NCBI GenBank assembly: GCA_002923395.1 | Contig: BEIK01000002.1 | Coordinates: 1,965 to 65,964, forward strand | DNA: 64,000 nt | Direction: 5' to 3' | Origin: a bacterium HR34 | Lineage (GTDB): Bacteria; Patescibacteriota; Minisyncoccia; Minisyncoccales; HRBIN34 | Shown: in pieces, positions 657-62,208 of the stretch | How positions within the stretch are numbered: the first letter of the stretch is position 1 | Layout of the letters: the number at the start of each line of letters is the position of its first letter | Notes under the pieces: generated by a model | What the model saw: only the letters and a program-made list of their open reading frames with translations | The model's database searches: none | Told to the model about the DNA's origin: nothing | Position numbers and translations under genes: made by a program

Positions 657-3600
657 ATGTTTACCAACGAAATAGAACTTCAAATTTTAAAATTTTGGAA
701 AGATAAGGATATTTTTAAAAAAAGTCTGCGAAAAAATAAAGGCAGGAAAAATTTTGTTTTTTATGAAGGTCCGCCAACAGCAAACGGAAAGCCCGGAATA
801 CATCATATTTTAGCGAGAAGTTTTAAGGATGTTATTTGCCGATTCAAAACAATGAAAGGTTTTTATGTTTTGAGAAGAGGCGGTTGGGATACCCATGGAT
901 TACCAGTAGAACTCGAAGTTGAAAAGAAACTTGGCTTGGAAAATAAAAGAGATATAGAAAGGTTTGGAATTAAAAAATTTAATGAGATGTGTAGGCAGTC
1001 TGTTTGGGAATATAAAACAGAGTGGGAAAAACTTACAGAGAGAATGGCTTACTGGATTGATTTGGAGAACGCTTACATAACTTATGATCCGAATTACATT
1101 GAAAGCGTTTGGTATATTTTAAGTTTTCTTTACAAAAAAGGGTATTTGCAAAAAGGTTATAAAGTTTTGCCATATTGCCCGAGATGCGGCACGCCCTTGT
1201 CTTCTCATGAGGTTGCGCTTGGTTATAAAAAGGTAAAGGATAAATCAATTTATGTGAAGTTTGAAATTAAAGATAAAGAGTTTGCTAAAAAATTAGGTTT
1301 TCAAGAAGAAAAAATTTACTTAATTATTTGGACAACCACTCCGTGGACCTTGCCGGCAAACGTGCTGGTCGCCGGAAATAAAAATATAAAATACGTTGCC
1401 GTAAAAGTTGGCAACGAAGTTTATATTTTAAGCAAAAAAGCAAAAGATAGCATTTTTCCAGATATTAGCGACGAGAAAGAGATTGATTCAAAAAATTTAT
1501 ATAACTTAGAGTACAAACCTCCTTATAATGTTTTGGAAAGTTTTAATGTTAAACCAAAAAGATCACATTATGTTGTTTTTGCTGATTATGTAAGCGATGA
1601 GGATGGTTCTGGTTTTGTGCACATAGCGCCGGCATTTGGGCAGGAAGATATGGATGTGGTTGAAAAAGAAAACAAAAAAAATAAAGTTAATTTGCCTGTT
1701 TTAATTACGCTTGAAGACGATGGTGCTTTCAAGAAAATAAAAGGGTTAGAATTTATTGAGGGAAAATTTGTAAAAGAAGCAGATCCCTTAATTGTGCAGG
1801 ATTTACAAAACAAAAAACTTTTATTGAAAGAACAGGTGATAGAGCATGAGTACCCTTTTTGTTGGAGGTGCAAAAGCCCTTTGCTGTATTTTGCTAGAGA
1901 TTCTTGGTTTGTAAAGACAACTTTAATAAAAGATAAAATAATAAAAAACAACAAAACCATAAGTTGGGTACCAACTCACTTGAAGGAAGGGAGATTTGGA
2001 GAGTGGCTAAAAGATCTTAAAGATTGGGCTATCTCAAGAGAAAGATATTGGGGTACTCCTTTACCAATATGGATATGCGAAAAATGCGGCAATCAAAAGG
2101 TTTTATCAAGTAAAAGTGATATTGAAAAACAAAAATTTACAACGAATACCTTTTATATTTTAAGGCATGGCCAGTCCCTTAGAAATGTTTATAATTTTGT
2201 TTCATGCTGGCCGGAAGTAAGAAAATCTCCTTTAACAAAAGAGGGTATAGCGCAGGCTAAAGAAGCAGGAAAAAAATTAAAAGGGAAAATTGATATTATT
2301 TTCACCTCTGATTTAGAAAGGACAATGCAAACTGCTCAAATAGTTGCTGAAGAAACAGGCTGCAAAGTTTTGCTGGCGAAAGAATTAAGAGAGGTAAATG
2401 AGGGCATATTTAACGGCAAAAAAACAATAGAAGTTTTTAGGTATTTTACCAAAAAATACGGTAAAGAATTGTCAAAAGAAGAATATTATCTAATGAGGTT
2501 TAGAGAAAAGGTACCAGGAGGTGAGAGTTTGTCAGAGTTACAAAAAAGAGTTTTAAGTTTTATAAAGCGCATAAACAAAAAATATAAAAACAAAAGAATA
2601 CTTCTTGTTTCTCATGAGTTGCCTTTAACAATTTTGGAATGTTCAATGAAGGGAATGAGTCCTATTGAAATAATTAAATTTAGAGAAAAGAAAATGATAA
2701 AAACAGCCGAAGTTAGAAAAATAGATTTTAAGATACTTCCATATAATGATAATTCTGAAATTGATTTTCACCGTCCGTATATAGATGAGGTTGAGTTTTT
2801 GTGTGATAATTGTTCTTCTTTAATGAAAAGAGTTCCTGATGTTTTGGATTGTTGGTTTGATAGCGGTTCTATGCCATTCGCTCAGTGGCACTACCCTTTT
2901 GAAAATAAAGATTTAATAGACAAAAGAAAACAGTTCCCAGCAGATTATATTTCAGAGGCGATAGATCAAACAAGAGGATGGTTTTATACTCTTTTGGCTG
3001 TGTCAACATTTTTGAAAGGCGTGGCTCCTTACAAAAATGTTGTTTCTTTGGGGCACGTTTTAGATGAGAAGGGAGAAAAAATGTCAAAATCAAAAGGTAA
3101 TGTTGTTGATCCTTGGCAAATGGCTCAAAAATATACAATTGATTCTGTTAGGTGGTATTTTTTTACAGTTAATCAGCCGGGAGAACCAAAACTTTTTTCG
3201 GAAAAAGCATTGGAGGCGGTTTACAAAAAATTTATTTTAACAACTTTTAATGTAATTAATTTTTTAAAGCTTTACTCAAACGAAAAAGTAAAAATTCAAA
3301 CTAATTTTTCTAAAAATAACAACATTCTTGATAAATGGATTTTATCGAAAATTAATTCTTTAACTTTTGAGGTTACAAAAGATTTGGAAAGTTATAAAAT
3401 AGTCGATGCTGCAAGAAAAATAGAAAATTTTGTTGTGGACGATTTATCTCAATGGTATGTTAGAAGATCTCGCGACAGATTTAGGGAAAGCGGAAGTGAC
3501 TTTAATACTGCTTTTTCTGTTTTATTTTTGGTTTTAAAGAAGTTATCTATTGTTATGGCGCCTTTCGTTCCGTTTTTAGGAGAATATGTTTATCAACAGT

Positions 3601-4223
3601 TAAAAAATATAAACGAAAAAGGTTTTAAAGAAAGTGTGCACTTGGAAAATTACTTTAAGCCGAATAGGAAACTCATAAACAAAAAACTTGAGTTGAATAT
3701 GGAGAAAATAAGAGAATTGGTAAATGTTGGTTTGAATTTAAGACAAAAAGCAAAAATAAAAGTAAGGCAACCACTTTTGGAAATTTATTTACACGAGTCA
3801 TTGAGGAAAATCGTAGACAAAGATATGCAAGAAATTCTGAAAGGAGAACTTAATGTTAAGAGGATAGTGTTTTTTAAAGATAGAAATGAGATCAAAAAAG
3901 ATAAAGTTACCGAGAGCGACGAGAATAAAGATATTCTATTGAATATTGAAATAACACCTGAGCTTCAAAATGAAGGCGAGATTAGGGAGTTTGTTAGGAA
4001 TATTCAGAATATAAGAAAGAAAATGGCTTTGATTCCAAAGGACTTAATAATAATTGAAGTTTCTGGAGACGAAAAGAGCAAAGAGTTTATAGAAATGAAC
4101 AAAGAGGTTTTGAAGGAAGTTTTGAAGGCAAAGGATTTAGTGTTTTATGACAATTTAACAGGAAAATATGATACAATATCAATTGGAGATAAAAAGTTTA
4201 ATATTAAAATTAAATTAGTATAA
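657..4223 (+). CDS. ileS: Isoleucyl-tRNA synthetase carrying an inserted histidine-phosphatase-like domain
   Basis: HIGH region (GKPGIHHILARS), KMSKSKGN, WAISRERYWGTPLPIW, DFHRPYID...DCWFDSGSMP; about 215 extra residues with RHG...SHE phosphatase motifs between the last two blocks. Confidence 0.9.
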   Translation: MFTNEIELQILKFWKDKDIFKKSLRKNKGRKNFVFYEGPPTANGKPGIHHILARSFKDVICRFKTMKGFYVLRRGGWDTHGLPVELEVEKKLGLENKRDIERFGIKKFNEMCRQSVWEYKTEWEKLTERMAYWIDLENAYITYDPNYIESVWYILSFLYKKGYLQKGYKVLPYCPRCGTPLSSHEVALGYKKVKDKSIYVKFEIKDKEFAKKLGFQEEKIYLIIWTTTPWTLPANVLVAGNKNIKYVAVKVGNEVYILSKKAKDSIFPDISDEKEIDSKNLYNLEYKPPYNVLESFNVKPKRSHYVVFADYVSDEDGSGFVHIAPAFGQEDMDVVEKENKKNKVNLPVLITLEDDGAFKKIKGLEFIEGKFVKEADPLIVQDLQNKKLLLKEQVIEHEYPFCWRCKSPLLYFARDSWFVKTTLIKDKIIKNNKTISWVPTHLKEGRFGEWLKDLKDWAISRERYWGTPLPIWICEKCGNQKVLSSKSDIEKQKFTTNTFYILRHGQSLRNVYNFVSCWPEVRKSPLTKEGIAQAKEAGKKLKGKIDIIFTSDLERTMQTAQIVAEETGCKVLLAKELREVNEGIFNGKKTIEVFRYFTKKYGKELSKEEYYLMRFREKVPGGESLSELQKRVLSFIKRINKKYKNKRILLVSHELPLTILECSMKGMSPIEIIKFREKKMIKTAEVRKIDFKILPYNDNSEIDFHRPYIDEVEFLCDNCSSLMKRVPDVLDCWFDSGSMPFAQWHYPFENKDLIDKRKQFPADYISEAIDQTRGWFYTLLAVSTFLKGVAPYKNVVSLGHVLDEKGEKMSKSKGNVVDPWQMAQKYTIDSVRWYFFTVNQPGEPKLFSEKALEAVYKKFILTTFNVINFLKLYSNEKVKIQTNFSKNNNILDKWILSKINSLTFEVTKDLESYKIVDAARKIENFVVDDLSQWYVRRSRDRFRESGSDFNTAFSVLFLVLKKLSIVMAPFVPFLGEYVYQQLKNINEKGFKESVHLENYFKPNRKLINKKLELNMEKIRELVNVGLNLRQKAKIKVRQPLLEIYLHESLRKIVDKDMQEILKGELNVKRIVFFKDRNEIKKDKVTESDENKDILLNIEITPELQNEGEIREFVRNIQNIRKKMALIPKDLIIIEVSGDEKSKEFIEMNKEVLKEVLKAKDLVFYDNLTGKYDTISIGDKKFNIKIKLV

Positions 4224-8246: not shown

Positions 8247-9524
8247 ATGAACTCAATTCAAATAAAAAAATTTCAAAATGGTTTAACTCTTTTGTTAGTT
8301 CCTAAGAAAAACACATTATCTGCAACTGTTTCTGTTTTTGTAAAAACAGGCTCTGAATATGAGACAAAAGAATCGAACGGAATATCGCATTTTTTAGAAC
8401 ATATGCTTTTCAAAGGCACAAAAAAGAGAAGAACACCTCTTGATATTTTTACTTTCACAGATTCTATTGGCGCTAATTTTAACGCCGCAACATCAAACCA
8501 ATATACATTTTATTATATTAAAACTCCTTACCATAACATAGAGCAGGCTTTTGATATAGTTTCAGATATTTATTTAAATTCCATTTTCCCCACTCAAGAA
8601 GTTGAAAAAGAGAGAAGTGTAATTATTGAAGAAATAAACACTTATTCTGACAACCCAATGATGAACATGCCCAACCTTTTTATAAATTGTTTGTATGGCG
8701 ATCAGCCGGCTGGTTGGGATATTGCCGGCACAAAACAAACAGTATCAAATATAAAAAGAGAAGATATTATAAGTTATATGGAAAGTCAGTATAAAGCAAG
8801 GAATACAATAGTTGTTGTGGCTGGTAATGTTAATTCTCAAGAAGTTTTAAGGTTAGTAGAAAAATATTTTAAAAACATAAGAATAGGCGAGTCAAAAGAA
8901 AAAAACAAAGTCATTATAAAATATGATGGCCCAAAAGTTTTAATTAAAGAGAGCAACACAGACCAGGTTCATTTGGCTTTGGGAGGCAATGGTTTTAGTA
9001 TGAAAGACAAAGAAAGATTTGCGCAAGATATTATAACAAGTATTTTAGGAGGTATGAGTAGCGCAAGATTGTTTTTGAAAATCAGGGAAGAAATGGGCGC
9101 TGCTTATTATATTTGGTCTGATTCTGATTTCTTTTTAGATCATGGATACATTTTTACCCAAACAGGAGTTAACATAGATAAAACAAAACAAGTTATAAAA
9201 GAAATAGTAAATCAATATAAACTTTTAACATTAGAACCAATTCCAAGCAAAGAATTAAAAAAAGTTAAGGGTTATTTGGAAGGGAAAATGACTCTATCTT
9301 TGGAAGATTCTGAGGCTTTAGCAAATTTTTATGGAGTGCAGTATTGTCTTAAAGATAGTGTTTTTAGACCAAAAGAATTGGTAGAAATTATTAATAAAAT
9401 TACTCCGCGTGATATAATAATAACATCAAGAAAATTATTTAATACTAAAAATTTATATCTTGCTATAACTGGCCCTTTTGAAAAAGAAGAGGAAAAAGAA
9501 TTTATTAACCTTTTAAAAATATGA
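8247..9524 (+). CDS. M16 family (pitrilysin-like) zinc peptidase
   Basis: Inverted zinc motif HFLEH followed by MLFKGT; length typical of the family. Confidence 0.8.
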   Translation: MNSIQIKKFQNGLTLLLVPKKNTLSATVSVFVKTGSEYETKESNGISHFLEHMLFKGTKKRRTPLDIFTFTDSIGANFNAATSNQYTFYYIKTPYHNIEQAFDIVSDIYLNSIFPTQEVEKERSVIIEEINTYSDNPMMNMPNLFINCLYGDQPAGWDIAGTKQTVSNIKREDIISYMESQYKARNTIVVVAGNVNSQEVLRLVEKYFKNIRIGESKEKNKVIIKYDGPKVLIKESNTDQVHLALGGNGFSMKDKERFAQDIITSILGGMSSARLFLKIREEMGAAYYIWSDSDFFLDHGYIFTQTGVNIDKTKQVIKEIVNQYKLLTLEPIPSKELKKVKGYLEGKMTLSLEDSEALANFYGVQYCLKDSVFRPKELVEIINKITPRDIIITSRKLFNTKNLYLAITGPFEKEEEKEFINLLKI

Positions 9525-10582
9525 ACAATTCTTCAGATAAAATATTTGACATATCTTGGGGAGCAATAATAAAGGTTTTTATAGTTATTACTGCTTTTTA
9601 TACAATTTTTTTAATAAAAGATTTGCTAATTTGGTTTGTTTTCGGCGTGGTTTTGTCTATTGTTTTTAATCCTTTAATTGATTCTCTGGAAAAGTTTAAG
9701 ATACCAAGAGTTGTTGGTGTTGTTGTTAGTTATTTTAGCGTTTTTGGTTTAATTGGCGCTTTGATTTATTTTACAATTCCAATTTTTATTTCAGAGTTGC
9801 AAAAACTTATTGCTAGTTTGCCAAATTATTTGGGCGAAATTTCTTTAATTTTACAGCCTTTTGGTATAGAAATATCAACAACTACAAACGAGTTTTTTAA
9901 CCAAGTGAAATCGTTTTTACAAGAAAGGTCTTCTGGTATATTGTCTTCTATAATGTCTTTGTTTGGAGGTTTATCTTCAACTCTTTTTGTTTTTACAATA
10001 GCAATGTTTCTTTCAATGGAACGCAATCCAATTCAAAAAGCTTTATATTTAATTTTTCCAAAAAAATACGAAAATTCAGTGGCGGTAATTTGGCAAAAAT
10101 GTAAATCAAAAGTTACAAATTGGTTTGTTGTAAGGATAATTGGAATGGTTTTTGTAGGCGCTGTTTCTTATGTTAGTTTTAGTTTGCTTGGCATAAAGTA
10201 TCCTTTAACACTTTCTTTAATATCTGGAGTTTTAGATTTTATACCGGTAATAGGACCTCTGATAGCATTTGTTATAGTTTTCTTTATGACATTGGCAGAT
10301 AATTTATTTAACGCCTTTTTAGTTGCCCTTATATTTGTTTTGGTTCAGATAATAGAAAACAATGTTTTAATTCCTATGCTCTCTGACAGATTTGTTGGTA
10401 TACCTTCTGTTTTGGTTTTAATTTCCTTGGCAATTGGCGCTAAACTTTTTGGTATGGTCGGAGCAATATTATTTGTGCCCCTCTCTGCTATTATTTATGA
10501 ATTTGCCAAAGAATTTTTAGAGCAAAGAAAAATTTTAGAAGGTGAATCAGAACAGCAAGAGTTAACCTTACCCCTAAAATAG
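9521..10582 (+). CDS. AI-2E family transporter (PerM/UPF0118-like permease)
   Basis: Multi-TM protein with the characteristic C-terminal half (VQIIENNVLIPMLSDRFVGIPSVLVLISL...). Confidence 0.7.
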   Translation: MNNSSDKIFDISWGAIIKVFIVITAFYTIFLIKDLLIWFVFGVVLSIVFNPLIDSLEKFKIPRVVGVVVSYFSVFGLIGALIYFTIPIFISELQKLIASLPNYLGEISLILQPFGIEISTTTNEFFNQVKSFLQERSSGILSSIMSLFGGLSSTLFVFTIAMFLSMERNPIQKALYLIFPKKYENSVAVIWQKCKSKVTNWFVVRIIGMVFVGAVSYVSFSLLGIKYPLTLSLISGVLDFIPVIGPLIAFVIVFFMTLADNLFNAFLVALIFVLVQIIENNVLIPMLSDRFVGIPSVLVLISLAIGAKLFGMVGAILFVPLSAIIYEFAKEFLEQRKILEGESEQQELTLPLK

Positions 10583-23185: not shown

Positions 23186-23207
23186 GATTTGAACCCGACA
23201 GAGGGGA
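23186..23207 (+). repeat. tRNA-trailer motif: inverted copy of the preceding T arm plus GAACCCGACAGAGGGG
   Basis: GATTTGAACCCG is the exact reverse complement of T-arm bases 23159-23170; GAACCCGACAGAGGGG resembles the start of the 124-nt module at 23893, 24363, 24526 and 24689. Confidence 0.6.
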
Positions 23208-23223
23208 TAATAAACAAATTTTT

Positions 23224-23790
23224 ATGTTAATTTATTTCATAACTTCTAATTCTAAAAAATTTAATGAAGTTAAAGAGTTTTTTAAAGATGTAAAAAATAT
23301 TCAGATAAAGAGAATAAATTTAGATATTCCCGAGATTCAATCAGTTGAGGTTAAAGAAATTGTAAAATTCAAGATTAATTACGTTCTTAAAAATTATAAT
23401 TTTAAAAATTTTTTAGTAGAAGATACAGGTTTTTATATAAAGTGTTTAAATTATTTGCCAGGTCCTTTTATAAAATGGTTCTTACTTTCAATCCGCTCTA
23501 AGGGTTTATATGAGATTTGCAATTTTTACAGAAATTATAAAGCAGAAGTAAAAATAGCTCTCGGATTAAGATTAAAAAACAAAAGTTATATTTTCAAAGG
23601 TAGCGTTAAAGGAAGAGTTGTAAAGCCAAAGAAGCGTTTATCTAACAGTGAGATATGGTGGGATAATATTTTTATGCCGGAAGGTTTTAGTAGAACTTTT
23701 AGTGAAATGAGTTCAGAAGAAAAAAATTTAATAAGTCACAGAGGAAAGGCATTAAGAAAATTGAAAAATTTTTTAATAAAAATAAAATAA
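23224..23790 (+). CDS. rdgB: Non-canonical purine NTP pyrophosphatase (RdgB/HAM1 family)
   Basis: ITSNSKKFNEV, EDTG, ISHRGKAL motifs of the Ham1 fold. Confidence 0.8.
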   Translation: MLIYFITSNSKKFNEVKEFFKDVKNIQIKRINLDIPEIQSVEVKEIVKFKINYVLKNYNFKNFLVEDTGFYIKCLNYLPGPFIKWFLLSIRSKGLYEICNFYRNYKAEVKIALGLRLKNKSYIFKGSVKGRVVKPKKRLSNSEIWWDNIFMPEGFSRTFSEMSSEEKNLISHRGKALRKLKNFLIKIK

Positions 23791-23810
23791 TAGAATATAT
23801 GGCGGCCGTA

Positions 23811-23883
23811 GCTTAAAGGTAAAGCATCAGGCTGTGGCCCTGAGGACTACGGGTTCGAGTCCCGTCGGCCGCCCAAGGCGAAA
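23811..23883 (+). tRNA. tRNA-His (GUG) with encoded G-1
   Basis: G-1 + GCGGCCG/CGGCCGC + C73, anticodon arm TCAGG-CTGTGGC-CCTGA, T arm ACGGG-TTCGAGT-CCCGT. Confidence 0.93.
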
Positions 23884-23888
23884 ACCCC

Positions 23889-24012
23889 ACAGAGGGGGTC
23901 GGGGAGATTGGGTATCTCCCCGTGAAGGAAAATAGCTCCGACTTTATGTCGGAGCGCAAGAAACCATGGGTTTCTTGGGAGCGAAGCGACGGGTTCGAGT
24001 CCCGTCGGCCGC
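23889..24012 (+). repeat. 124-nt GC-rich hairpin module, copy A (tRNA-His-linked); candidate structured ncRNA or miniature mobile element
   Basis: 121/124 identical to copies at 24359-24482 and 24522-24645; contains three 8-bp inverted repeats and ends in GGGTTCGAGTCC. Confidence 0.85.
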
Positions 24013-24025
24013 CCAGCAGAAAGAT
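23999..24025 (+). repeat. Duplicated 3' end of tRNA-His (T arm + acceptor 3' strand + CCA-position bases), orphan fragment
   Basis: ACGGGTTCGAGTCCCGTCGGCCGCCCA is identical to 23859-23885, 140 nt upstream. Confidence 0.9.
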
Positions 24026-24164
24026 TCCATATAAGGCGTTAGGGAGACCTTGATTTAGGTCTAGGAACAGGTTGAATATCTTCTTCCGTATGACAACAGG
24101 CAGATCAATCATTATATAGGTAGGTCCAGTCATATTCCAGTATACACAAAAAATGGAAGGGTGC

Positions 24165-24250
24165 CGGAGTGGTCTAACGGAACGGCCTGGAGAGCCGTGC
24201 CTCCTTGTGGGGCTCGTGGGTTCAAATCCCACCCCTTCCGCATAATTGTC
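24165..24250 (+). tRNA. tRNA-Ser (GGA), long variable arm
   Basis: Acceptor GGAAGGG/CCCTTCC, anticodon arm ACGGC-CTGGAGA-GCCGT, long variable arm, T arm GTGGG-TTCAAAT-CCCAC. Confidence 0.9.
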
Positions 24251-24257
24251 CCCGTAG

Positions 24258-24330
24258 TTCAACAGGATAGAACGAGTCCCTCCTAAGGACTAAATGGGGG
24301 TTCGAGTCCTCCCGGGGACACCGAGCAAAG
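24258..24330 (+). tRNA. tRNA-Arg (CCU)
   Basis: Acceptor GTCCCCG/CGGGGAC, anticodon arm AGTCC-CTCCTAA-GGACT, T arm GGGGG-TTCGAGT-CCTCC. Confidence 0.92.
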
Positions 24331-24358
24331 CGAGGTGGCAACCGGAGACGAGAACCCC

Positions 24359-24482
24359 ACAGAGGGGGTCGGGGAGATTGGGTATCTCCCCGTGAAGGAA
24401 AATAGCTCCGACATTATGTCGGAGCGCAAGAAACCGTGGGTTTCTTGGGAGCGAAGCGACGGGTTCGAGTCCTCCCGGGGAC
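24359..24482 (+). repeat. 124-nt hairpin module, copy B (tRNA-Arg-linked)
   Basis: Same core as 23889-24012. Hairpins: 24381-88/24394-401, 24415-22/24428-35, 24438-45/24449-56. Confidence 0.85.
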
Positions 24483-24521
24483 ACCGAGCAAAGCGAGGTG
24501 GCAACCGGAGACGAGAACCCC

Positions 24522-24645
24522 ACAGAGGGGGTCGGGGAGATTGGGTATCTCCCCGTGAAGGAAAATAGCTCCGACATTATGTCGGAGCGCAAGAAACCGT
24601 GGGTTTCTTGGGAGCGAAGCGACGGGTTCGAGTCCTCCCGGGGAC
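24522..24645 (+). repeat. 124-nt hairpin module, copy C
   Basis: Identical to copy B, offset by 163 nt. Confidence 0.85.
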
Positions 24646-24771
24646 ACCGAGCAAAGCGAGGTGGCAACCGGAGACGAGAACCCCACAGAGGGGGTCAAGA
24701 AAATTTAGATACAAGATATGAATAGCAAATTACAAGTTTAATATTGAAAAAACCAAATTTAAAAATTATTA

Positions 24772-24815: not shown

Positions 24816-24890
24816 GGACCCGTGGTGTAGCCCGGTTAACACGCCTCCCTGTCACGGAGGAGATCGAGGGTTCAAATCCCTTCGGGTCCG
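24816..24890 (+). tRNA. tRNA-Asp (GUC)
   Basis: Acceptor GGACCCG/CGGGTCC, anticodon arm CCTCC-CTGTCAC-GGAGG, T arm GAGGG-TTCAAAT-CCCTT. Confidence 0.92.
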
Positions 24891-24916
24891 CGGTAATTAA
24901 AATATAAATTAAAAAT

Positions 24917-30364: not shown

Positions 30365-30979
30365 ATGTTAATTTCTCAATTAATTAGCGACCCAATTTTA
30401 TTTTTTATAATTTTAATATCCCTTATAATAGCCTTTAGCGTTCACGAGTACTTCCACGCTTTCGCCGCCTACAGGCTTGGTGATCCTACTGCCAAGTTTC
30501 AAGGCAGGTTAACTCTTAATCCAATATCTCACATAGATCCATTAGGTTTTATTTTGCTTTTGTTTTTAGGTTTTGGTTGGGCAAAGCCAACCCCTGTTAA
30601 TCCTTTTAACTTTTCGAATAAAAGGTGGGGAAGTTTGTATGTTTCAATTGCAGGACCTTTGTCTAACTTTGGTATGGCAATTTTTGCGGGTTTAATTTTG
30701 CATTTTGGTTTCTTAACTTCAGAGTTGTCAATTAATTTTTTAGTCTCGTTTGTATATATAAATGTTTTGTTAGGAGTTTTTAATCTTTTGCCTTTTGCTC
30801 CTTTAGATGGTTTTCATATTTTTACATCTTTGTTTAGGCCAGAAAGATTTAGCCATTATACATTGCTCCTTGCAAATCCTTTTATGGTTATAATAGCGGT
30901 TTTTTTAATGATGTGGGTTATGATAGATTACGTTGTTAAACCAATAACAAGAATTTTAACAGGAGATCTACTGTTTTAG
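30365..30979 (+). CDS. Site-2 protease family (M50) membrane metalloprotease
   Basis: HEYFH zinc motif and NLLPFAPLDG. Confidence 0.8.
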   Translation: MLISQLISDPILFFIILISLIIAFSVHEYFHAFAAYRLGDPTAKFQGRLTLNPISHIDPLGFILLLFLGFGWAKPTPVNPFNFSNKRWGSLYVSIAGPLSNFGMAIFAGLILHFGFLTSELSINFLVSFVYINVLLGVFNLLPFAPLDGFHIFTSLFRPERFSHYTLLLANPFMVIIAVFLMMWVMIDYVVKPITRILTGDLLF

Positions 30980-31021
30980 AATTGTAAATTTGTTTTATAA
31001 AACTAGAACAATTCAAATAAT

Positions 31022-31050
31022 TTGACAATTTTTTTTCAATATACTAAATT
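31022..31050 (+). promoter_or_regulatory. Candidate promoter of the str operon
   Basis: TTGACA, 17-nt spacer, TAAATT; about 45 nt upstream of rpsL. Confidence 0.3.
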
Positions 31051-31095
31051 TATAACTATTATTAAAAGTAAGCAAATATTGAAGTAATTTAATTT

Positions 31096-31518
31096 ATGCC
31101 AACAATAAATCAGTTAATTAAAAAACCAAGGAAGCAAAAAACAAAGAGAACAAAGTCTCCTGCCTTGAAGTTTGGTTTTAATACTTTAAAAAACAAAAAA
31201 GTTTATCACCCATCTCCTTTTAAAAGAGGAGTTTGTATTAAAGTGTTTACAACAACACCTAAAAAACCAAACTCTGCTTTGAGGAAGGTTGCAAGAGTGA
31301 AACTTACTAATGGAATGGAAGTAACAGCTTACATTCCTGGTATTGGCCACAATCTACAGGAGCACTCAGTTGTTTTGATAAGAGGTGGTAGAGTTAAAGA
31401 TTTGCCAGGTGTAAGATATTATGTGGTTAGAGGTGTTTTAGATGCAGCAGGAGTTGAGGGTAGAAAACAAGAAAGGTCTAAATATGGAGTTAAAAAGCCT
31501 AAAGATGAAAATAAATAA
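31096..31518 (+). CDS. rpsL: 30S ribosomal protein S12
   Basis: [12 protein letters not shown]..., [39 protein letters not shown]. Confidence 0.97.
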
Positions 31519-54993: not shown

Positions 54994-55995
54994 ATGGATT
55001 ATCAAAACATTTGTAAAAAATTAATCCAACCACTTCCATCAAAATATCAAGATGTGATAGCAAACAGATTTGGTTTAGGTGGTGGCACAAAAACTACCTT
55101 ACAGGCACTAGGCAACAAATATAATATTACAAGAGAAAGGGTAAGGCAGATTCAAAATAGAGCTTTATCTCTGATAAAACAGACAAATAAAAAAATTATA
55201 GAGGAGGCAGCAAAAGAAATAGAATATGTCTTGAAAAAGGAAGGTGGAATTAAAAGAGAAGACATCTTACTTGAAAAAGTTGACAAAGAGAACGCTAACG
55301 AGGTTTTCTTTCTACTACACTTAGCAGATCCTTTTTATAGAGGAGGTGGGAATGAAAAAATTCATTTTGTTTGGTCTATTGGAAAAGAAAAAGTTGACGA
55401 AGCAGAACAATTTATAACTGATATAATAGAGCAATTAGAAGATATAGGAGAGCCTGTTTCTTTGGTTGATTTAGATATACCAAAAAATCTTGATAGAAAA
55501 TGGATAAACTCTGTTATAGAAGCGTCCAAAACAATTCAATTTACAAGAGATGATCTTGTTGGTCTTTATTTTTGGCCAGAAGTAAACCCTAAATATATAA
55601 GGGATAAAGCATATTATGTTTTAAAAAGAGAAGGAAAACCTTTACATTTTGTTGATATAGCCAAAAAAATAAATGAAATTTTCTTTCAAAATGATAAAAG
55701 AGCGCAGACAAATGTCAAAACAGTTCACAACGAATTAATAAAAGATGAAAGATTTGTTTTAATAGGAAGAGGGTTGTATGCTCTATCAGAATGGGGCTAT
55801 CAACCAGGATTTACAAAAGAAATTATCGCGAGAGTTTTAAAGGAAGCGGGAAAACCTCTGTCTTTTGAAGAAATTAAAAACAAAGTATTACTTCAAAGAA
55901 AAATAAAAGAAAATACAATTATTTCTGTTTTGTCTAACAACAGAAATATATTTTTAAGAACAGAAGATGGCAAATATTATTTAAAGGATGAGTAA
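54994..55995 (+). CDS. Putative DNA-binding protein: sigma-70 region-4-like HTH plus two HARE-HTH-like winged-helix modules
   Basis: LGNKYNITRERVRQIQNRAL (region 4.2-like). Two repeats of the EGKPLHF.DI...V / GRGLYAL pattern typical of RpoE-delta/HARE-HTH. Confidence 0.55.
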   Translation: MDYQNICKKLIQPLPSKYQDVIANRFGLGGGTKTTLQALGNKYNITRERVRQIQNRALSLIKQTNKKIIEEAAKEIEYVLKKEGGIKREDILLEKVDKENANEVFFLLHLADPFYRGGGNEKIHFVWSIGKEKVDEAEQFITDIIEQLEDIGEPVSLVDLDIPKNLDRKWINSVIEASKTIQFTRDDLVGLYFWPEVNPKYIRDKAYYVLKREGKPLHFVDIAKKINEIFFQNDKRAQTNVKTVHNELIKDERFVLIGRGLYALSEWGYQPGFTKEIIARVLKEAGKPLSFEEIKNKVLLQRKIKENTIISVLSNNRNIFLRTEDGKYYLKDE

Positions 55996-56008
55996 CTCTT
56001 TTTGAATT

Positions 56009-57367
56009 ATGGATGCTCTTTCCATTTTACAATTTTTGCAATATGTGTCTAGTTTAGTAAAACCAATAAAAGAATTTCTCATGAATTTTTTAATAGATTG
56101 GTGGTGGTTAATTGCGCCTTTTATCCTATGGAGACCTTTTTATTTGTTATGGCATTGGTGGAGAAATGAAATTTTCTTTTCTTATATAAAGTTTGTTTTT
56201 CTGGAGGTTATTCTTCCAAAAGAAACAAAAAAACCTTTAAGGGCAATGGAGCAGGTTATAAGTAGTATATGGGGTAGTGTTTATGATCCTCCAGATTGGT
56301 GGGAAGAGCATATAGAAGGTAAGGTTATTTTAAGTGTAGTTTTTGAGATTATAAGTTTGGAGGGTAAAATTCATTTTTTTATAAGGGTGCCAGAACGCGC
56401 TAGGGCAGGCGTAGAATCATCTATTTATTCTCAATATCCTGACGCTGAAATCATAGAAGTAGACGATTACACAAAATATGTTCCTCAGGACATTCCAAAT
56501 AAAGATTGGGATTGCTGGGGTTTCGACGTCCAACTTTTAAAACCAGAAGTTTATCCAATTAGGACCTATGAAATGTTTTTTGAGGAAAGACCTGAAACAA
56601 CAGAAGAAAAAAGATTAGACCCTCTCTCTCCACTTTTAGAGGGTATGACAAAATTAAATAAAGGAGAGCATATGTGGCTTCAAATAGTAGTAAAGCCAAT
56701 AGCGCCGGCAGATTATCCTTATCCAGAAATTGGCAAAAAAGAAGTAAATAAATTAATGAAAAGAGTTAAGGAAGAAAAAAAAGGAACTAAAAGTTTAATA
56801 GAAATGATAATAGATGAATTTATTTTTTTGTTTACAGGCAAAAAGCCTCCAACAGAAGCTCAAAAATCTGCTGAAACAAGCGCGCTTTTTACAGAGTATA
56901 TTTTTGGCTTAACAGAGGACGAAAGAAAAGTTATAGCAGCGATAGAGAAGAAAGTAAGTAAATTTTGTTTTATGGGATTTATAAGGTTCTTGCATGTATA
57001 TAAAAGAGATTCTGTTAGTACCGCTGCAAAACCTGTAGTTATTGGTTTTCTTGAGTCATTATCAACAACAAACCTAAATACAATGAAGCCTTGGGGTGAA
57101 ACTATCACAAAGGTTCATAAACACTGGTTCTTACCTTACAATTTATTTTTACCACGACTTTTATATCTTAAAAAAAGAAAAATGTTTAATAATTATATGA
57201 TGAGAGTGCCACCTAAATTTCCAAACCCCGGAGGGACATTCATTTTAAATACCGAAGAATTAGCAACATTATTTCATTTCCCAAGCAGAGACATATCGCC
57301 AGTGCCGTTTATTAGGAGAGTTGAGGCTACGAAAGGAATACCCCCTTCAACTATACCATTAGAATAA
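56009..57367 (+). CDS. Hypothetical Trp-rich membrane-associated protein, probable partner of the downstream ATPase
   Basis: N-terminal hydrophobic/Trp-rich segment (FLIDWWWLIAPFILWRPFYLLWHWW); C-terminal EELATLFHFP motif; 4-nt gap to the next gene. Confidence 0.55.
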   Translation: MDALSILQFLQYVSSLVKPIKEFLMNFLIDWWWLIAPFILWRPFYLLWHWWRNEIFFSYIKFVFLEVILPKETKKPLRAMEQVISSIWGSVYDPPDWWEEHIEGKVILSVVFEIISLEGKIHFFIRVPERARAGVESSIYSQYPDAEIIEVDDYTKYVPQDIPNKDWDCWGFDVQLLKPEVYPIRTYEMFFEERPETTEEKRLDPLSPLLEGMTKLNKGEHMWLQIVVKPIAPADYPYPEIGKKEVNKLMKRVKEEKKGTKSLIEMIIDEFIFLFTGKKPPTEAQKSAETSALFTEYIFGLTEDERKVIAAIEKKVSKFCFMGFIRFLHVYKRDSVSTAAKPVVIGFLESLSTTNLNTMKPWGETITKVHKHWFLPYNLFLPRLLYLKKRKMFNNYMMRVPPKFPNPGGTFILNTEELATLFHFPSRDISPVPFIRRVEATKGIPPSTIPLE

Positions 57368-57371
57368 AAGT

Positions 57372-58985
57372 ATGATTTTAAAAGACATACAAGACAACAA
57401 ACTAATACCAAAAAAAGATCTTTGTATAATGGGAGAGATAAACTTTAGAAATACAAAGCGTCGTTTTGGAATAAAATTAGACGACAGAAGACGCCATATC
57501 TATAGTGTTGGTAAAACAGGTATGGGTAAAACAGAATTTTTAAAATCAATGGCAATTCAAGATATTTTGGTTGGCCACGGAGTTGCTTTTATTGACCCCC
57601 ATGGTGACGCTGCCGACTCCCTTTTAGATTTTATTCCAGAACAAAGGCAAAAAGATGTTATCTATTTTAATCCTTCTGATGTAGATTACCCTATTGCTTT
57701 TAACATAATGGAGAACGTTGACTACAAAAATAGGCATCTTGTTGCAGGTGGTCTTTTAGGGATATTTAAAAAACTTTGGCCTGATGTTTGGTCTCCAAGA
57801 ATGGAATATATTTTAAACAACTGCATTTTAGCTCTTTTGGAAACCCCAGACGCGACTCTTTTGGGAATAAACAAACTTTTAGCAAACGAAGAATACAGGA
57901 AAAAAGTTTTAACCTATGTTAAAGATCCTGTTGTAAAATCGTTCTGGTTGCAAGAATTTGCAAGGTACACCCAAAGATACGAAGTTGAAGCAACAGCAGC
58001 GGTTCAAAACAAAATAGGTCAATTCATTTCAATCCCCTTGATAAGAAATATTGTTGGTCAAAAACGTTCAACAATAGATATAAGAAAAATAATGGACGAA
58101 GGAAAAATTTTAATAGTAAATATATCAAAAGGAAAAATAGGCGAAGATCAATCAAACTTATTGGGCGGTTTAATAATTACAAAACTTCAATTGGCAGCAA
58201 TGTCTCGCGTTGACATACCAGAAGATGAGAGAAAAGATTTCTTTTTATATGTAGATGAGTTTCAAAACTTTGCTACCAAATCTTTTGCAACAATTTTATC
58301 AGAAGCGAGAAAATACCGCCTTTCCATTATTTTAACTCACCAATATATATCTCAAATGGAAGAGAGCGTAAGAGATGCCGTTTTTGGGAACGTTGGCACA
58401 ATTGTCTGTTTTAGAGTTGGAGCAGAAGACGCAGAATTTTTGCAAAAAGAATTCGACCCTGTTTTTACAGCAGAAGATCTTGTAAATCTTCCAAAGTATA
58501 ATATGTATGTAAAACTTATGGTAGATGGCGTAACTCAAAGGCCATTTTCGGCCCGAACCCTACCGCCTTTCAAACCGCCAGAATTATCATTTAGAAAAGA
58601 AGTAATAGAAAATTCAAGAAAGCAATACGCTGTTGAAAGAGAAAAAGTTGAAAAAGAAATACTTGCTTTTATAGGAGAGATAAAAGAACCGCCTCAAAGA
58701 TTGAAGTTATACGATGCCATTTGTTCAAACTGCGGTAGAAGAGAAAAGGTGCCGATTGACCCTTCTGTATCGCCGCCTCTTTGTAAATCCTGCCGAAAGA
58801 AAATGGGATTAAGGAAAGAACAAAAAATCCAAAATCAAGCAAGCAAAGCTAACACAATTTCAAATCAAGATAAAAAACCAGATTCTTCAGTTCAAGAACA
58901 ACGAGTTTCTCAAGAGCCACCGCAAGTACAACCGCCTATCAAAAAAGCAGGTTTATTAAAACCTGGCGATAAAGTAATTTTTTAA
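57372..58985 (+). CDS. VirD4/TraD/TraG-like (type IV coupling protein-like) P-loop ATPase with C-terminal zinc ribbon
   Basis: Walker A GKTGMGKT, Walker B FFLYVDEFQNF, THQYISQ sensor region, CSNCGR...CKSCRKK, Gln/Pro-rich tail; no N-terminal TM helices. Confidence 0.65.
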   Translation: MILKDIQDNKLIPKKDLCIMGEINFRNTKRRFGIKLDDRRRHIYSVGKTGMGKTEFLKSMAIQDILVGHGVAFIDPHGDAADSLLDFIPEQRQKDVIYFNPSDVDYPIAFNIMENVDYKNRHLVAGGLLGIFKKLWPDVWSPRMEYILNNCILALLETPDATLLGINKLLANEEYRKKVLTYVKDPVVKSFWLQEFARYTQRYEVEATAAVQNKIGQFISIPLIRNIVGQKRSTIDIRKIMDEGKILIVNISKGKIGEDQSNLLGGLIITKLQLAAMSRVDIPEDERKDFFLYVDEFQNFATKSFATILSEARKYRLSIILTHQYISQMEESVRDAVFGNVGTIVCFRVGAEDAEFLQKEFDPVFTAEDLVNLPKYNMYVKLMVDGVTQRPFSARTLPPFKPPELSFRKEVIENSRKQYAVEREKVEKEILAFIGEIKEPPQRLKLYDAICSNCGRREKVPIDPSVSPPLCKSCRKKMGLRKEQKIQNQASKANTISNQDKKPDSSVQEQRVSQEPPQVQPPIKKAGLLKPGDKVIF

Positions 58986-61791: not shown

Positions 61792-62199
61792 GTGGATGCT
61801 TTAAGGCAACCGCTTTCCGACTATTGTCGGAAAGAGGAAACTCCGGACATCCTGCTCCGATTTTTTCGTCGGAGTATAAAACCCTGCGGGTAAAGGCCCG
61901 CCGCCGTAAACTTATTGTAGTTTGCGGTAGGGGTGCGAACAGAGACGAGGTTGCCAGTAATGGCGCCTGTCCTTTTCGCTTCAAAATAATTTTGAAGCGA
62001 AAAGGAAAGCTCTGCGGTAACGCAGAGGTGAAACGGCTAAATCCCAGGGGGATGCAAGGCTAAAACCTGCTAAAAATCTAGCAGGTATGGGTAAGCCGCA
62101 ATGAGTGTTATGGGTAACCATAACACCAAGATAAATGGTTGCCACTCTTCCTGCTTGAAATAGGAAGAGCACAGAATCCGGGTTATTAAAGCTTCCACA
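61792..62199 (+). ncRNA. rnpB: RNase P RNA (bacterial type A-like)
   Basis: P1 pairing GTGGATGCTTTAA / TTAAAGCTTCCAC, conserved AGAGGAAACTCCGGAC (CR-I/P4) and CACAGAATCCGGGTTAT (CR-V/P4); GC-rich island in AT-rich DNA. Confidence 0.9.
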
Positions 62200-62208
62200 A
62201 AATAGACC

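Follow-up and report, generated by a model that had tools for sequence, protein, structure and literature searches.

The DNA analysed here, referred to below as the window, is a stretch of 64,000 nucleotides (64 kb) from bacterium HR34, and it carries a perfect tandem array of 163-nt units that begins within the T arm of a tRNA-Arg(CCT) gene and runs on beyond its 3′ end (24298–24696, + strand). On balance, the array appears to be a local copy of a hairpin cassette that reached the tRNA-Arg trailer from that of the neighbouring tRNA-His gene through short homologies; unequal recombination would then have amplified it, and it varies between strains. It is probably a strain-variable, minisatellite-like segmental duplication inside a single tRNA operon, and probably not a new machine. 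Arrays of these kinds, formed as minisatellites or by duplication of tRNA 3′ ends, are already known; the hairpin cassette itself is unannotated. The genome is a short-read metagenome bin, and the HR bins presumably derive from Japanese hot-water sites.

Structure of the array behind tRNA-Arg

Tandem Repeats Finder reports 24298–24696 as a single tandem array with a period of 163, 2.4 copies, 100% matches, 0 indels and a score of 798. Unit 1 (24298–24460) and unit 2 (24461–24623) are the same letter for letter, and the 73-nt partial unit 3 (24624–24696) equals the start of unit 1 by string comparison. The initial annotation had already described this array, with the correct period, copy number and partial last copy, and its impression by eye that the units are identical proved exact by both methods. 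Its positions (24308, 24471, 24634 and 24706) are all 10 nt too high, the true start being 24298, so that the observation is confirmed with shifted coordinates. Chance can be excluded as the origin of the repeats, because the 26-mer GGGAGCGAAGCGACGGGTTCGAGTCC occurs three times against 0.00 expected and a 16-mer of the first hairpin has five matches with up to three mismatches against 0.01 expected. As the annotation had also held, a unit of 163 nt is not a multiple of three and cannot encode a repetitive protein; the protein-coding reading was rejected, the four largest open reading frames (ORFs) overlapping the locus being without a Pfam match.

Each unit comprises the T-loop 12-mer GGGTTCGAGTCC, 13 nt of the tRNA-Arg 3′ end, a 23-nt spacer, a 25-nt block containing the first hairpin (H1) and a 90-nt core. 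The 12-mer lies at 24298–24309 in the T arm of tRNA-Arg (GGGGG/CCTCC), and its other start points at this locus are 24461 and 24624. The genuine tRNA-Arg T stem reads AAATGGGGGTTCGAGTCC|TCCC, whereas copies 2 and 3 read GCGACGGGTTCGAGTCC|TCCCGGGGACACC, in which a tRNA-His-type ACGGG is joined to the Arg-specific 3′ strand. The resulting chimeric stem (ACGGG/CCTCC) retains three of five pairs. This combination of a His-type 5′ half with an Arg-type 3′ half, pointed out in the annotation, can be read directly in the sequence and places one junction inside the common 12-mer, with ACGGG before it and Arg-specific sequence after it. The boundary between units reads GCGAAGCGAC|GGGTTCGAGTCCTCCC, and its native counterpart AAATGG|GGGTTCGAGTCCTCCC. 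Downstream of H1 the sequence continues either with GGGGAG into a core or with AAGAAA into the flank.

The locus coincides with a marked change in composition. The window has a GC content of 31.5%, and positions 23788–24721 form a 934-nt island of 55% GC that holds tRNA-His, tRNA-Ser and tRNA-Arg, all on the + strand; tRNA-Asp (24816–24891) lies outside the island, just downstream. Both tRNA-His(GTG) (23802–23874, + strand, G-1 at 23801) and tRNA-Arg(CCT) (24248–24322, + strand) were predicted by ARAGORN and score 70.8 and 63.8 bits, respectively, with the Rfam tRNA model, and tRNA-Arg is intact. In tRNA-His the 12-mer occupies 23851–23862 of the T arm. The annotation had suggested a search for other tRNAs with this T loop; among the seven tRNAs of the window, only tRNA-His and tRNA-Arg have the 12-mer, and both carry the cassette. 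The T loop of tRNA-Gly(CCC) is GGGTTCGACTCC, and this gene has no cassette.

The hairpin cassette behind tRNA-His

The His-linked cassette (23876–23988, + strand) is 113 nt long, is predicted to form four hairpins, and is bracketed by a perfect 27-nt direct repeat, ACGGGTTCGAGTCCCGTCGGCCGCCCA (established by string identity; family D2 of the repeat finder). The left copy (23849–23875, + strand) spans the T-stem 5′ strand to 2 nt past the tRNA-His discriminator. The right copy (23989–24015, + strand) repeats the T arm and the acceptor 3′ strand of tRNA-His without a 5′ half. Together, the cassette and one 27-nt repeat make up a 140-nt insertion that is absent in the sister strain described below.

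The cassette starts with AGGCG, and its first 25 nt (23876–23900) form a trailer block that contains H1 (23885–23897, CCCC-ACAGA-GGGG). H2 (23900–23922) is CGGGGAGAU-UGGGU-AUCUCCCCG, and the linker UGAAGGAAAAUA separates it from H3 (23935–23955), which is GCUCCGAC-UUUAU-GUCGGAGC. H4 (23957–23977), CAAGAAACC-AUG-GGUUUCUUG, is followed by the linker GGAGCGAAGCG, and the cassette ends in ...GCGAAGCG. Both linkers are purine-rich, and the four hairpins differ from one another by eye. A repeat search and inspection found no inverted repeat pairing the cassette ends. The GC content of the cassette regions is 0.52–0.61 against 0.315 for the window. For the 142-nt stretch 23875–24016, which includes the cassette and the right-hand 27-nt repeat, the predicted folding energy is −72 kcal/mol (z = −5.5). 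The predicted energies as a whole range from −72 to −74 kcal/mol with z from −4.4 to −5.5, no shuffled sequence was as stable, and the four hairpins persist in a prediction at 65 °C. Composition and predicted structure say that the cassette is shaped as an RNA or as hairpin DNA.

The His and Arg loci are 470 nt apart, with His upstream, and positions 23876–24002 align without gaps to 24346–24472 at 123 of 127 positions. This homology extends from the first base past the tRNA-His 3′ end to the end of the 12-mer. Within the cores only 2 of 102 positions differ (23943/24413 and 23966/24436), both of them in hairpin loops. A 25-nt block, AGRCGARAACCYCACAGAGGGGGTC, is common to the Arg trailer and the His cassette, and the order of the blocks differs between the two loci: at tRNA-Arg the T loop leads to H1, and in the His cassette H1 is followed by the core and then by the T loop.

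A promoter-like site, TTGAAA-16-TAAAAT (23761–23788, + strand), precedes tRNA-His; it matches 10 of 12 positions in a consensus scan, and is a consensus match only. It is likely to be the start of a transcript covering tRNA-His, the cassette, tRNA-Ser, tRNA-Arg and the array. The same scan gave no promoter-like sites inside the cassettes, and no + strand terminator was found inside the GC island. The whole region is probably transcribed with the tRNAs, which would make the cassette a structured 3′-trailer RNA. Whatever its role, which could for example lie in blocking 3′ exonucleases or in processing, the cassette is evidently dispensable, because it is absent from a 99%-identical strain.

A sister strain with empty sites

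Exact look-ups of the LemA, S12, GatC and Ham1-like proteins of the window matched only sequencing runs DRR163687 and DRR101367 and one MGnify contig. The contig from run DRR163687 obtained in this way (L001) matches the window at 99.0–99.3% identity over 20 kb, and at tRNA-His and tRNA-Arg alike its sites are clean and empty. At the His site, ...CGGCCGCCCA is followed directly by the native trailer. At the Arg site, GAGCAAAGCGAGGTGGCAACCGG-AGGCGAGAACCTCACAGAGGGGGTC comes after the tRNA, and the sequence then runs into the flank AAGAAAATTTAG, which the window has as well. The Arg trailer of this strain (9732–9779) equals window positions 24323–24370 with two single-nucleotide polymorphisms (SNPs), and the 48 nt after tRNA-Arg are therefore native trailer, being present in a strain with an empty site. 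In the window, this native trailer (24323–24370, + strand) consists of the 23-nt spacer GAGCAAAGCGAGGTGGCAACCGG and the 25-nt block AGACGAGAACCCCACAGAGGGGGTC containing H1. The initial annotation had counted the spacer and H1 as parts of the repeated module, an assignment that the sister strain overturns. Between the His block, AGGCGAAAACCCCACAGAGGGGGTC, and the Arg block of the sister strain, AGGCGAGAACCTCACAGAGGGGGTC, 23 of 25 positions are identical.

Alignment of the filled and empty sites shows that the DNA extra to the sister strain is 24371–24696 (+ strand), exactly 2 × 163 nt. It holds two cores, at 24371–24460 and 24534–24623, each made up of H2, H3, H4 and linker and followed by a re-copied 73-nt stretch from the T loop to H1. 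The annotation had proposed that copy number could vary in the population and that sister tRNA-Arg(CCT) loci be compared; in the one close strain the array is absent, the empty site is clean, and the variation is borne out. The rearrangement is real, recent and variable, because a strain 99% identical lacks the cassette at both sites.

The SNP profile between the two strains has a background of 0–7 differences per 500 nt in the flanks of the locus out to ~30,500 and of 0–9 elsewhere outside hot spots. A divergence hot spot of 6–10%, with its centre on tRNA-His and the His trailer, begins at 23514 within the Ham1-like gene and reaches the end of that trailer at 24147. A second hot spot, at ~30500–31500, takes in the gene of an M50-type peptidase, intergenic sequence and the first part of rpsL. 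Each of the two probably marks a recombination tract, and the first suggests that the His allele, with or without the cassette, moved between lineages by homologous recombination.

A comparison with more distant tRNA-Arg(CCT) loci was set aside: the outgroup pattern was found in six genomes, and the only Patescibacteria bin among them (a Nealsonbacteria genome, in which tRNA-His and tRNA-Arg have plain AT-rich trailers) is too distant to polarise the event.

A probable local origin for the array

Both junctions of the array fall in pre-existing homologies, the right one in the 12-mer GGGTTCGAGTCC and the left one in the 25-nt H1 block. The initial annotation had proposed recombination or insertion at the 12-mer. 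A junction is indeed present there, and the second one, in the 25-nt trailer block AGRCGARAACCYCACAGAGGGGGTC, was missed. Its description of the array as seeded inside the T arm likewise captures only half of what happened: the event resembles template switching or local recombination, and not the insertion of a free element at the 12-mer. With these changes, its interpretation is supported and extended.

The starting state would have been the arrangement observed at tRNA-His, namely a 113-nt cassette in the trailer bracketed by a 27-nt duplication of the tRNA-His 3′ end. Copying of the Arg trailer could have reached H1, jumped to the H1 of the His cassette, proceeded through the core to the T loop and returned there to the Arg T loop. 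An equivalent route would be an unequal crossover at H1, giving a 470-nt duplication, with subsequent deletion between two T-loop 12-mers. By either route, one core would be placed behind tRNA-Arg, and the Arg 3′ end, spacer and H1 would be re-copied. Both routes would leave His-type ACGGG before the 12-mer and Arg sequence after it, as seen. The 73-nt direct repeats then flanking the 90-nt core, from the T-loop 12-mer to H1, could have produced two cores by unequal crossing-over or slippage, and the same repeats could collapse the array to zero. Ordinary unequal crossing-over or slippage would thus explain the two cores, their perfect identity and the possible collapse. The genuine tRNA-Arg would remain intact throughout, with the duplicated tRNA 3′ fragments as by-products.

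Three features point to transfer from His to Arg: the AC before GGG belongs to the tRNA-His T stem, the repeat at tRNA-His is the full 27 nt, and the GGCG at the cassette start complements the His acceptor strand and not that of Arg.

A local event also fits better than a spreading element, since neither mobility genes nor other copies were found. Of the ORFs of the 64-kb window that were checked by Pfam scans and precomputed Pfam hits, none encodes an integrase, a transposase or a reverse transcriptase, and the single RVT_3 match is an RNase H-type protein. The window holds no cassette copies outside 23876–24696. Exact-pattern scans of IMG/VR viral contigs with four cassette patterns gave 0 matches, as did a scan of GTDB, at one genome per species, with a pattern of the two linkers. 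The two-linker pattern had one match in JGI metagenomes, in the 3′ end of a transposase gene on a GC-rich contig without a tRNA, and this was rejected as chance. In a blastn search of phage and plasmid records with the 142-nt His cassette, only a 21–22-nt tRNA T-arm stretch matched. LemA, encoded next to the locus, is 100% identical to HRbin34_00138 of bacterium HR34. Beyond the exact protein matches, the next homologues of LemA are ~70–75% identical (in Paceibacterota and Patescibacteria bins) and those of the Ham1-like protein <50%. The LemA loci of these homologues have no upstream tRNA cluster, and the cassette is absent from the 20 loci retrieved, these among them. A literature search found neither an account of this locus in the organism nor one of a comparable array seeded in a T loop.

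Several considerations weigh against this reconstruction. The comparison rests on one sister strain, and that strain could itself have lost the cassettes, because recombination between the 27-nt repeats (His) or the 73-nt repeats (Arg) regenerates perfect empty sites. The Arg copy may predate the split of the strains, with both copies lost from the sister strain; the difference between the cores, ~2% (2/102), is not below the 0.7–1% divergence of the strains, and counts as low as these do not settle the matter. The mechanism was pieced together from its end points, and no intermediate such as the 470-nt duplication was seen. The reconstruction takes the donor cassette as given, and a 27-nt duplication of a tRNA 3′ end is the kind of footprint that site-specific integration classically leaves. 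Diverged relatives would escape the database scans, which relied on exact patterns, and within this genome the search for copies and recombinases covered the 64-kb window. Finally, the copy number rests on the short-read assembly of the HR34 bin.

Alternative explanations

That footprint bears on an unlikely reading in which the cassette is a miniature, non-autonomous integrative element, a circle of 140 nt (at tRNA-His) or 163 nt (at tRNA-Arg) whose attachment site (attP) mimics a tRNA T arm and 3′ end. A tyrosine integrase encoded elsewhere would target tRNA genes with the T loop GGGTTCGAGTCC, and tandem copies would reflect repeated integration. Such an element would produce a perfect repeat like the 27-nt one around the His insert, which starts in the T stem and ends shortly beyond the 3′ end of a tRNA left intact; integrases directed at tRNA genes usually use this segment. 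The clean empty site of the sister strain and the restriction of occupied tRNAs to the two with the 12-mer are in keeping with this reading, as is the resemblance of the left end of the insert to the tRNA-His trailer, which is expected if attP was captured from the bacterial site (attB) region. In addition, integrative Thermus phages have this 21-nt T-arm segment close to one end of the genome. The junctions themselves argue otherwise. A single crossover at the 12-mer would fuse the 5′ part of tRNA-Arg to a His 3′ end, whereas an intact tRNA-Arg, its own trailer and then the core are seen. At tRNA-His the cassette directly follows the tRNA 3′ end, and at tRNA-Arg it lies 48 nt downstream, past the native trailer, where the re-copied Arg segment is 73 nt and not the tRNA 3′ end alone. 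The lack of an integrase or other mobility gene in the 64 kb, and of cassette copies in the scans and searches described above, counts against integration as well, and a payload of 113 nt is, to our knowledge, far below that of any known integrative element.

In the three Thermus phages concerned (PQ109075.1, PQ109076.1 and PQ109080.1), the 21-mer near the genome end is ACGGGTTCGAGTCCCGTCGGC, which is identical to the tRNA-His T arm and the start of the acceptor. It is probably their attP.

Likewise improbable is a reading in which the cassette works as a small RNA descended from tRNA-His and imitates the tRNA "top half", its four hairpins standing where the D and anticodon arms would be. It would be excised by RNase P and RNase Z, CCA addition or recognition by histidyl-tRNA synthetase (HisRS) might follow, and the array at tRNA-Arg would be an amplification for dosage or a derivative. 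After cleavage at the tRNA-His discriminator, a closing helix between GGCG (23877–23880) and CGCC (24010–24013) is predicted with a probability of ~0.9, and its four pairs reproduce G-1:C73, G1:C72, C2:G71 and G3:C70 of tRNA-His. The adjoining 7-bp T arm is predicted at 0.83–1.0, and the fold is still predicted at 65 °C. A functional small RNA would also agree with the high GC and the perfect hairpins, which stand out in a genome of 31% GC, and with the location of both core substitutions in loops. The tRNAs of this locus have no encoded CCA, so that their 3′ ends would be made by endonuclease cleavage at the discriminator. On the other hand, four nucleotides can be complementary by coincidence, there are no homologues in which to look for covariation, and the cassette is missing from the 99%-identical strain. 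The Arg copies have a T stem broken to three pairs and have lost the GGCG/CGCC pairing (AGACG against the Arg 3′ end). A search with Rfam 15 found nothing on the cassette at gathering thresholds and, at E up to 10, no tRNA, tmRNA (transfer-messenger RNA) or other match beyond scattered weak hits, such as Hrs1 at 16.6 bits (gathering 56.4) and the beta_tmRNA T arm at 8.6 bits; ARAGORN predicted no tmRNA. Known ribozymes, tmRNA, riboswitches and known small RNAs were ruled out on these Rfam negatives.

A bolder combination, which must be considered quite doubtful, holds that the cassette is a self-propagating small RNA gene derived from tRNA-His, a bacterial counterpart of the tRNA-derived short interspersed nuclear elements (SINEs) or a mini tmRNA-like top-half mimic. 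Having kept the G-1:C73 acceptor end and the T arm, with four hairpins for the remainder, it would be processed by the tRNA maturation enzymes and would spread to further tRNA trailers through recombination at the T loop and H1. The isolated H1 sequences after tRNA-Met and in the Arg trailer of the sister strain, as well as the cassette-like, decayed start of the native His trailer, would then be footprints of earlier copies.

The least probable explanation is that the array, or its copy number, is an artefact of an assembler cycling through the near-identical His and Arg cassettes: the short-read source, the 100% identity of units longer (163 nt) than usual k-mer sizes and the breaks in the Logan contigs of DRR101367 on both sides of the locus would allow it, but the His and Arg cassettes differ at four positions and have different flanks, so that two real loci exist, a chimeric T-stem junction is not something an assembler invents, and the start of one Logan contig at an Arg-specific sequence fits a graph branch between core and flank. 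This contig from DRR101367 begins with the 30-mer ACCGGAGACGAGAACCCCACAGAGGGGGTC, which is Arg-specific and ends in H1, and continues into the flank. If Logan contigs are built with k = 31, as we take them to be, the 30-mer would be the k−1 overlap at a branch where the Arg-specific H1 context has two continuations, core and flank. At least one core behind tRNA-Arg would therefore have read support, which does not extend to the exact number. Another Logan contig of this run, DRR101367_136, ends in the Illumina adapter AGATCGGAAGAGCG just before tRNA-His (L006 13543–13556); because of this terminal adapter sequence, the contig end is an assembly artefact and uninformative on the locus.

H1 and the native trailers

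The H1 motif, AACCNNANAGAGGGG, has five matches in the window, all in tRNA trailers, against 0.01 expected (23192–23206, 23883–23897, 24353–24367, 24516–24530 and 24679–24693), and is found at 8725–8739 and 9762–9776 of the sister contig. The first of these is an H1-like hairpin, AACCCGACAGAGGGG, after tRNA-Met (23192–23206, + strand), which has no cassette and is present in both strains. The spacing from discriminator to stem is 11 nt at both tRNA-Met and tRNA-His. From its distribution, H1 may be a trailer or processing signal specific to this lineage, or else the trace of earlier cassettes.

The native tRNA-His trailer (24016–24154, + strand) is present in both strains and lies within the divergence hot spot. 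Its first 33 nt (24016–24048; 9409–9441 in the sister contig) align in register with the first 33 nt of the cassette, with identity at 18 of 33 positions in the window (shuffle p = 0.0006) and 22 of 33 in the sister strain, and none of 62,867 background 33-mers reaches 22. This likeness hints at an older, decayed copy or at common trailer ancestry. The native trailer was rejected as a full decayed cassette: the likeness is limited to those 33 nt, and folding tests found no significant structure in it. At tRNA-Arg, the start of the spacer (24323–24345), GAGCAAAGCGA, matches the 3′ linker of the cassette (23978–23989), GAGCGAAGCGA, at 10 of 11 positions (shuffle p = 0.05), a hint only that the native Arg trailer could be a relic of the junction between two older cassettes.

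Relation to known systems

The closest likeness of the array is to bacterial minisatellites or variable-number tandem repeats (VNTRs), such as the mycobacterial interspersed repetitive unit (MIRU) type, which also consist of identical, head-to-tail units of ~50–200 nt in transcribed intergenic regions and differ in copy number between very close strains, here by 0 versus 2 extra units. Such loci arise and change in size through unequal crossing-over or replication slippage. The array departs from them in that its chimeric unit combines a tRNA 3′ fragment and native trailer with a cassette imported from a neighbouring tRNA locus, with one junction inside a T loop, at a single locus and without a dispersed family.

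Islands and prophages integrated at tRNA 3′ ends share the attL/attR-like 27-nt bracket at tRNA-His, the intact tRNA and the empty site in a relative, but the payload here is 113 nt and gene-free, no integrase lies nearby, and the Arg junctions are unlike a single att crossover. As in repetitive extragenic palindromes (REP) and bacterial interspersed mosaic elements (BIME), stable GC-rich hairpins lie at the 3′ end of a transcription unit, are amplified in tandem and may act as barriers to 3′ exonucleases. In contrast to these, the four hairpins are unrelated to one another and lie at just two neighbouring loci of the 64 kb, a search of the window brought up neither a RAYT nor an IS200-type gene, and terminal inverted repeats are lacking. 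The predicted acceptor-like helix beside a canonical T arm, with extra helices in place of the D and anticodon arms, recalls the tRNA-like domain of tmRNA and other top-half mimics, but the helix has only four pairs, there is no tag frame and no pseudoknot, ARAGORN and Rfam are negative, and the mimicry is lost in the Arg copies.

If the reconstruction of a local origin is true, conserved GC-rich sequences such as the invariant T loop serve as recombination handles in an AT-rich, reduced genome, and can move and amplify neighbouring sequence without the machinery of mobile elements. The finding by itself introduces no new mechanism, but it would be far more valuable were the cassette shown to be mobile or to yield a processed, tRNA-like RNA. 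The locus is a ready strain marker for this uncultured, Patescibacteria-like lineage of hot-spring type, with 0 or 2 extra units. The hairpin cassette and H1 are candidates for unannotated structured RNAs, and H1 may bear on tRNA 3′-end processing or on the ending of transcripts.

Other features of the window

Three adjacent genes at 54994–58985 (+ strand) encode a sigma-70 region 4/HARE-HTH protein, a 452-aa ORF without a Pfam match and a TrwB/TraG-like type IV coupling ATPase; no other genes resembling those for conjugation or DNA transfer were seen in the window. An ORF of 1188 aa at 657–4223 (+ strand) encodes a class I tRNA synthetase of the isoleucyl/valyl type, in which a His_Phos_1 domain (aa 500–676, E = 1e-34) is inserted between the two halves of the catalytic core. 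At 61794–62200 (+ strand) lies an RNase P RNA of bacterial class A, which scores 102 bits against a gathering threshold of 100 and, with 407 nt for a 367-position model, is divergent or insert-bearing.

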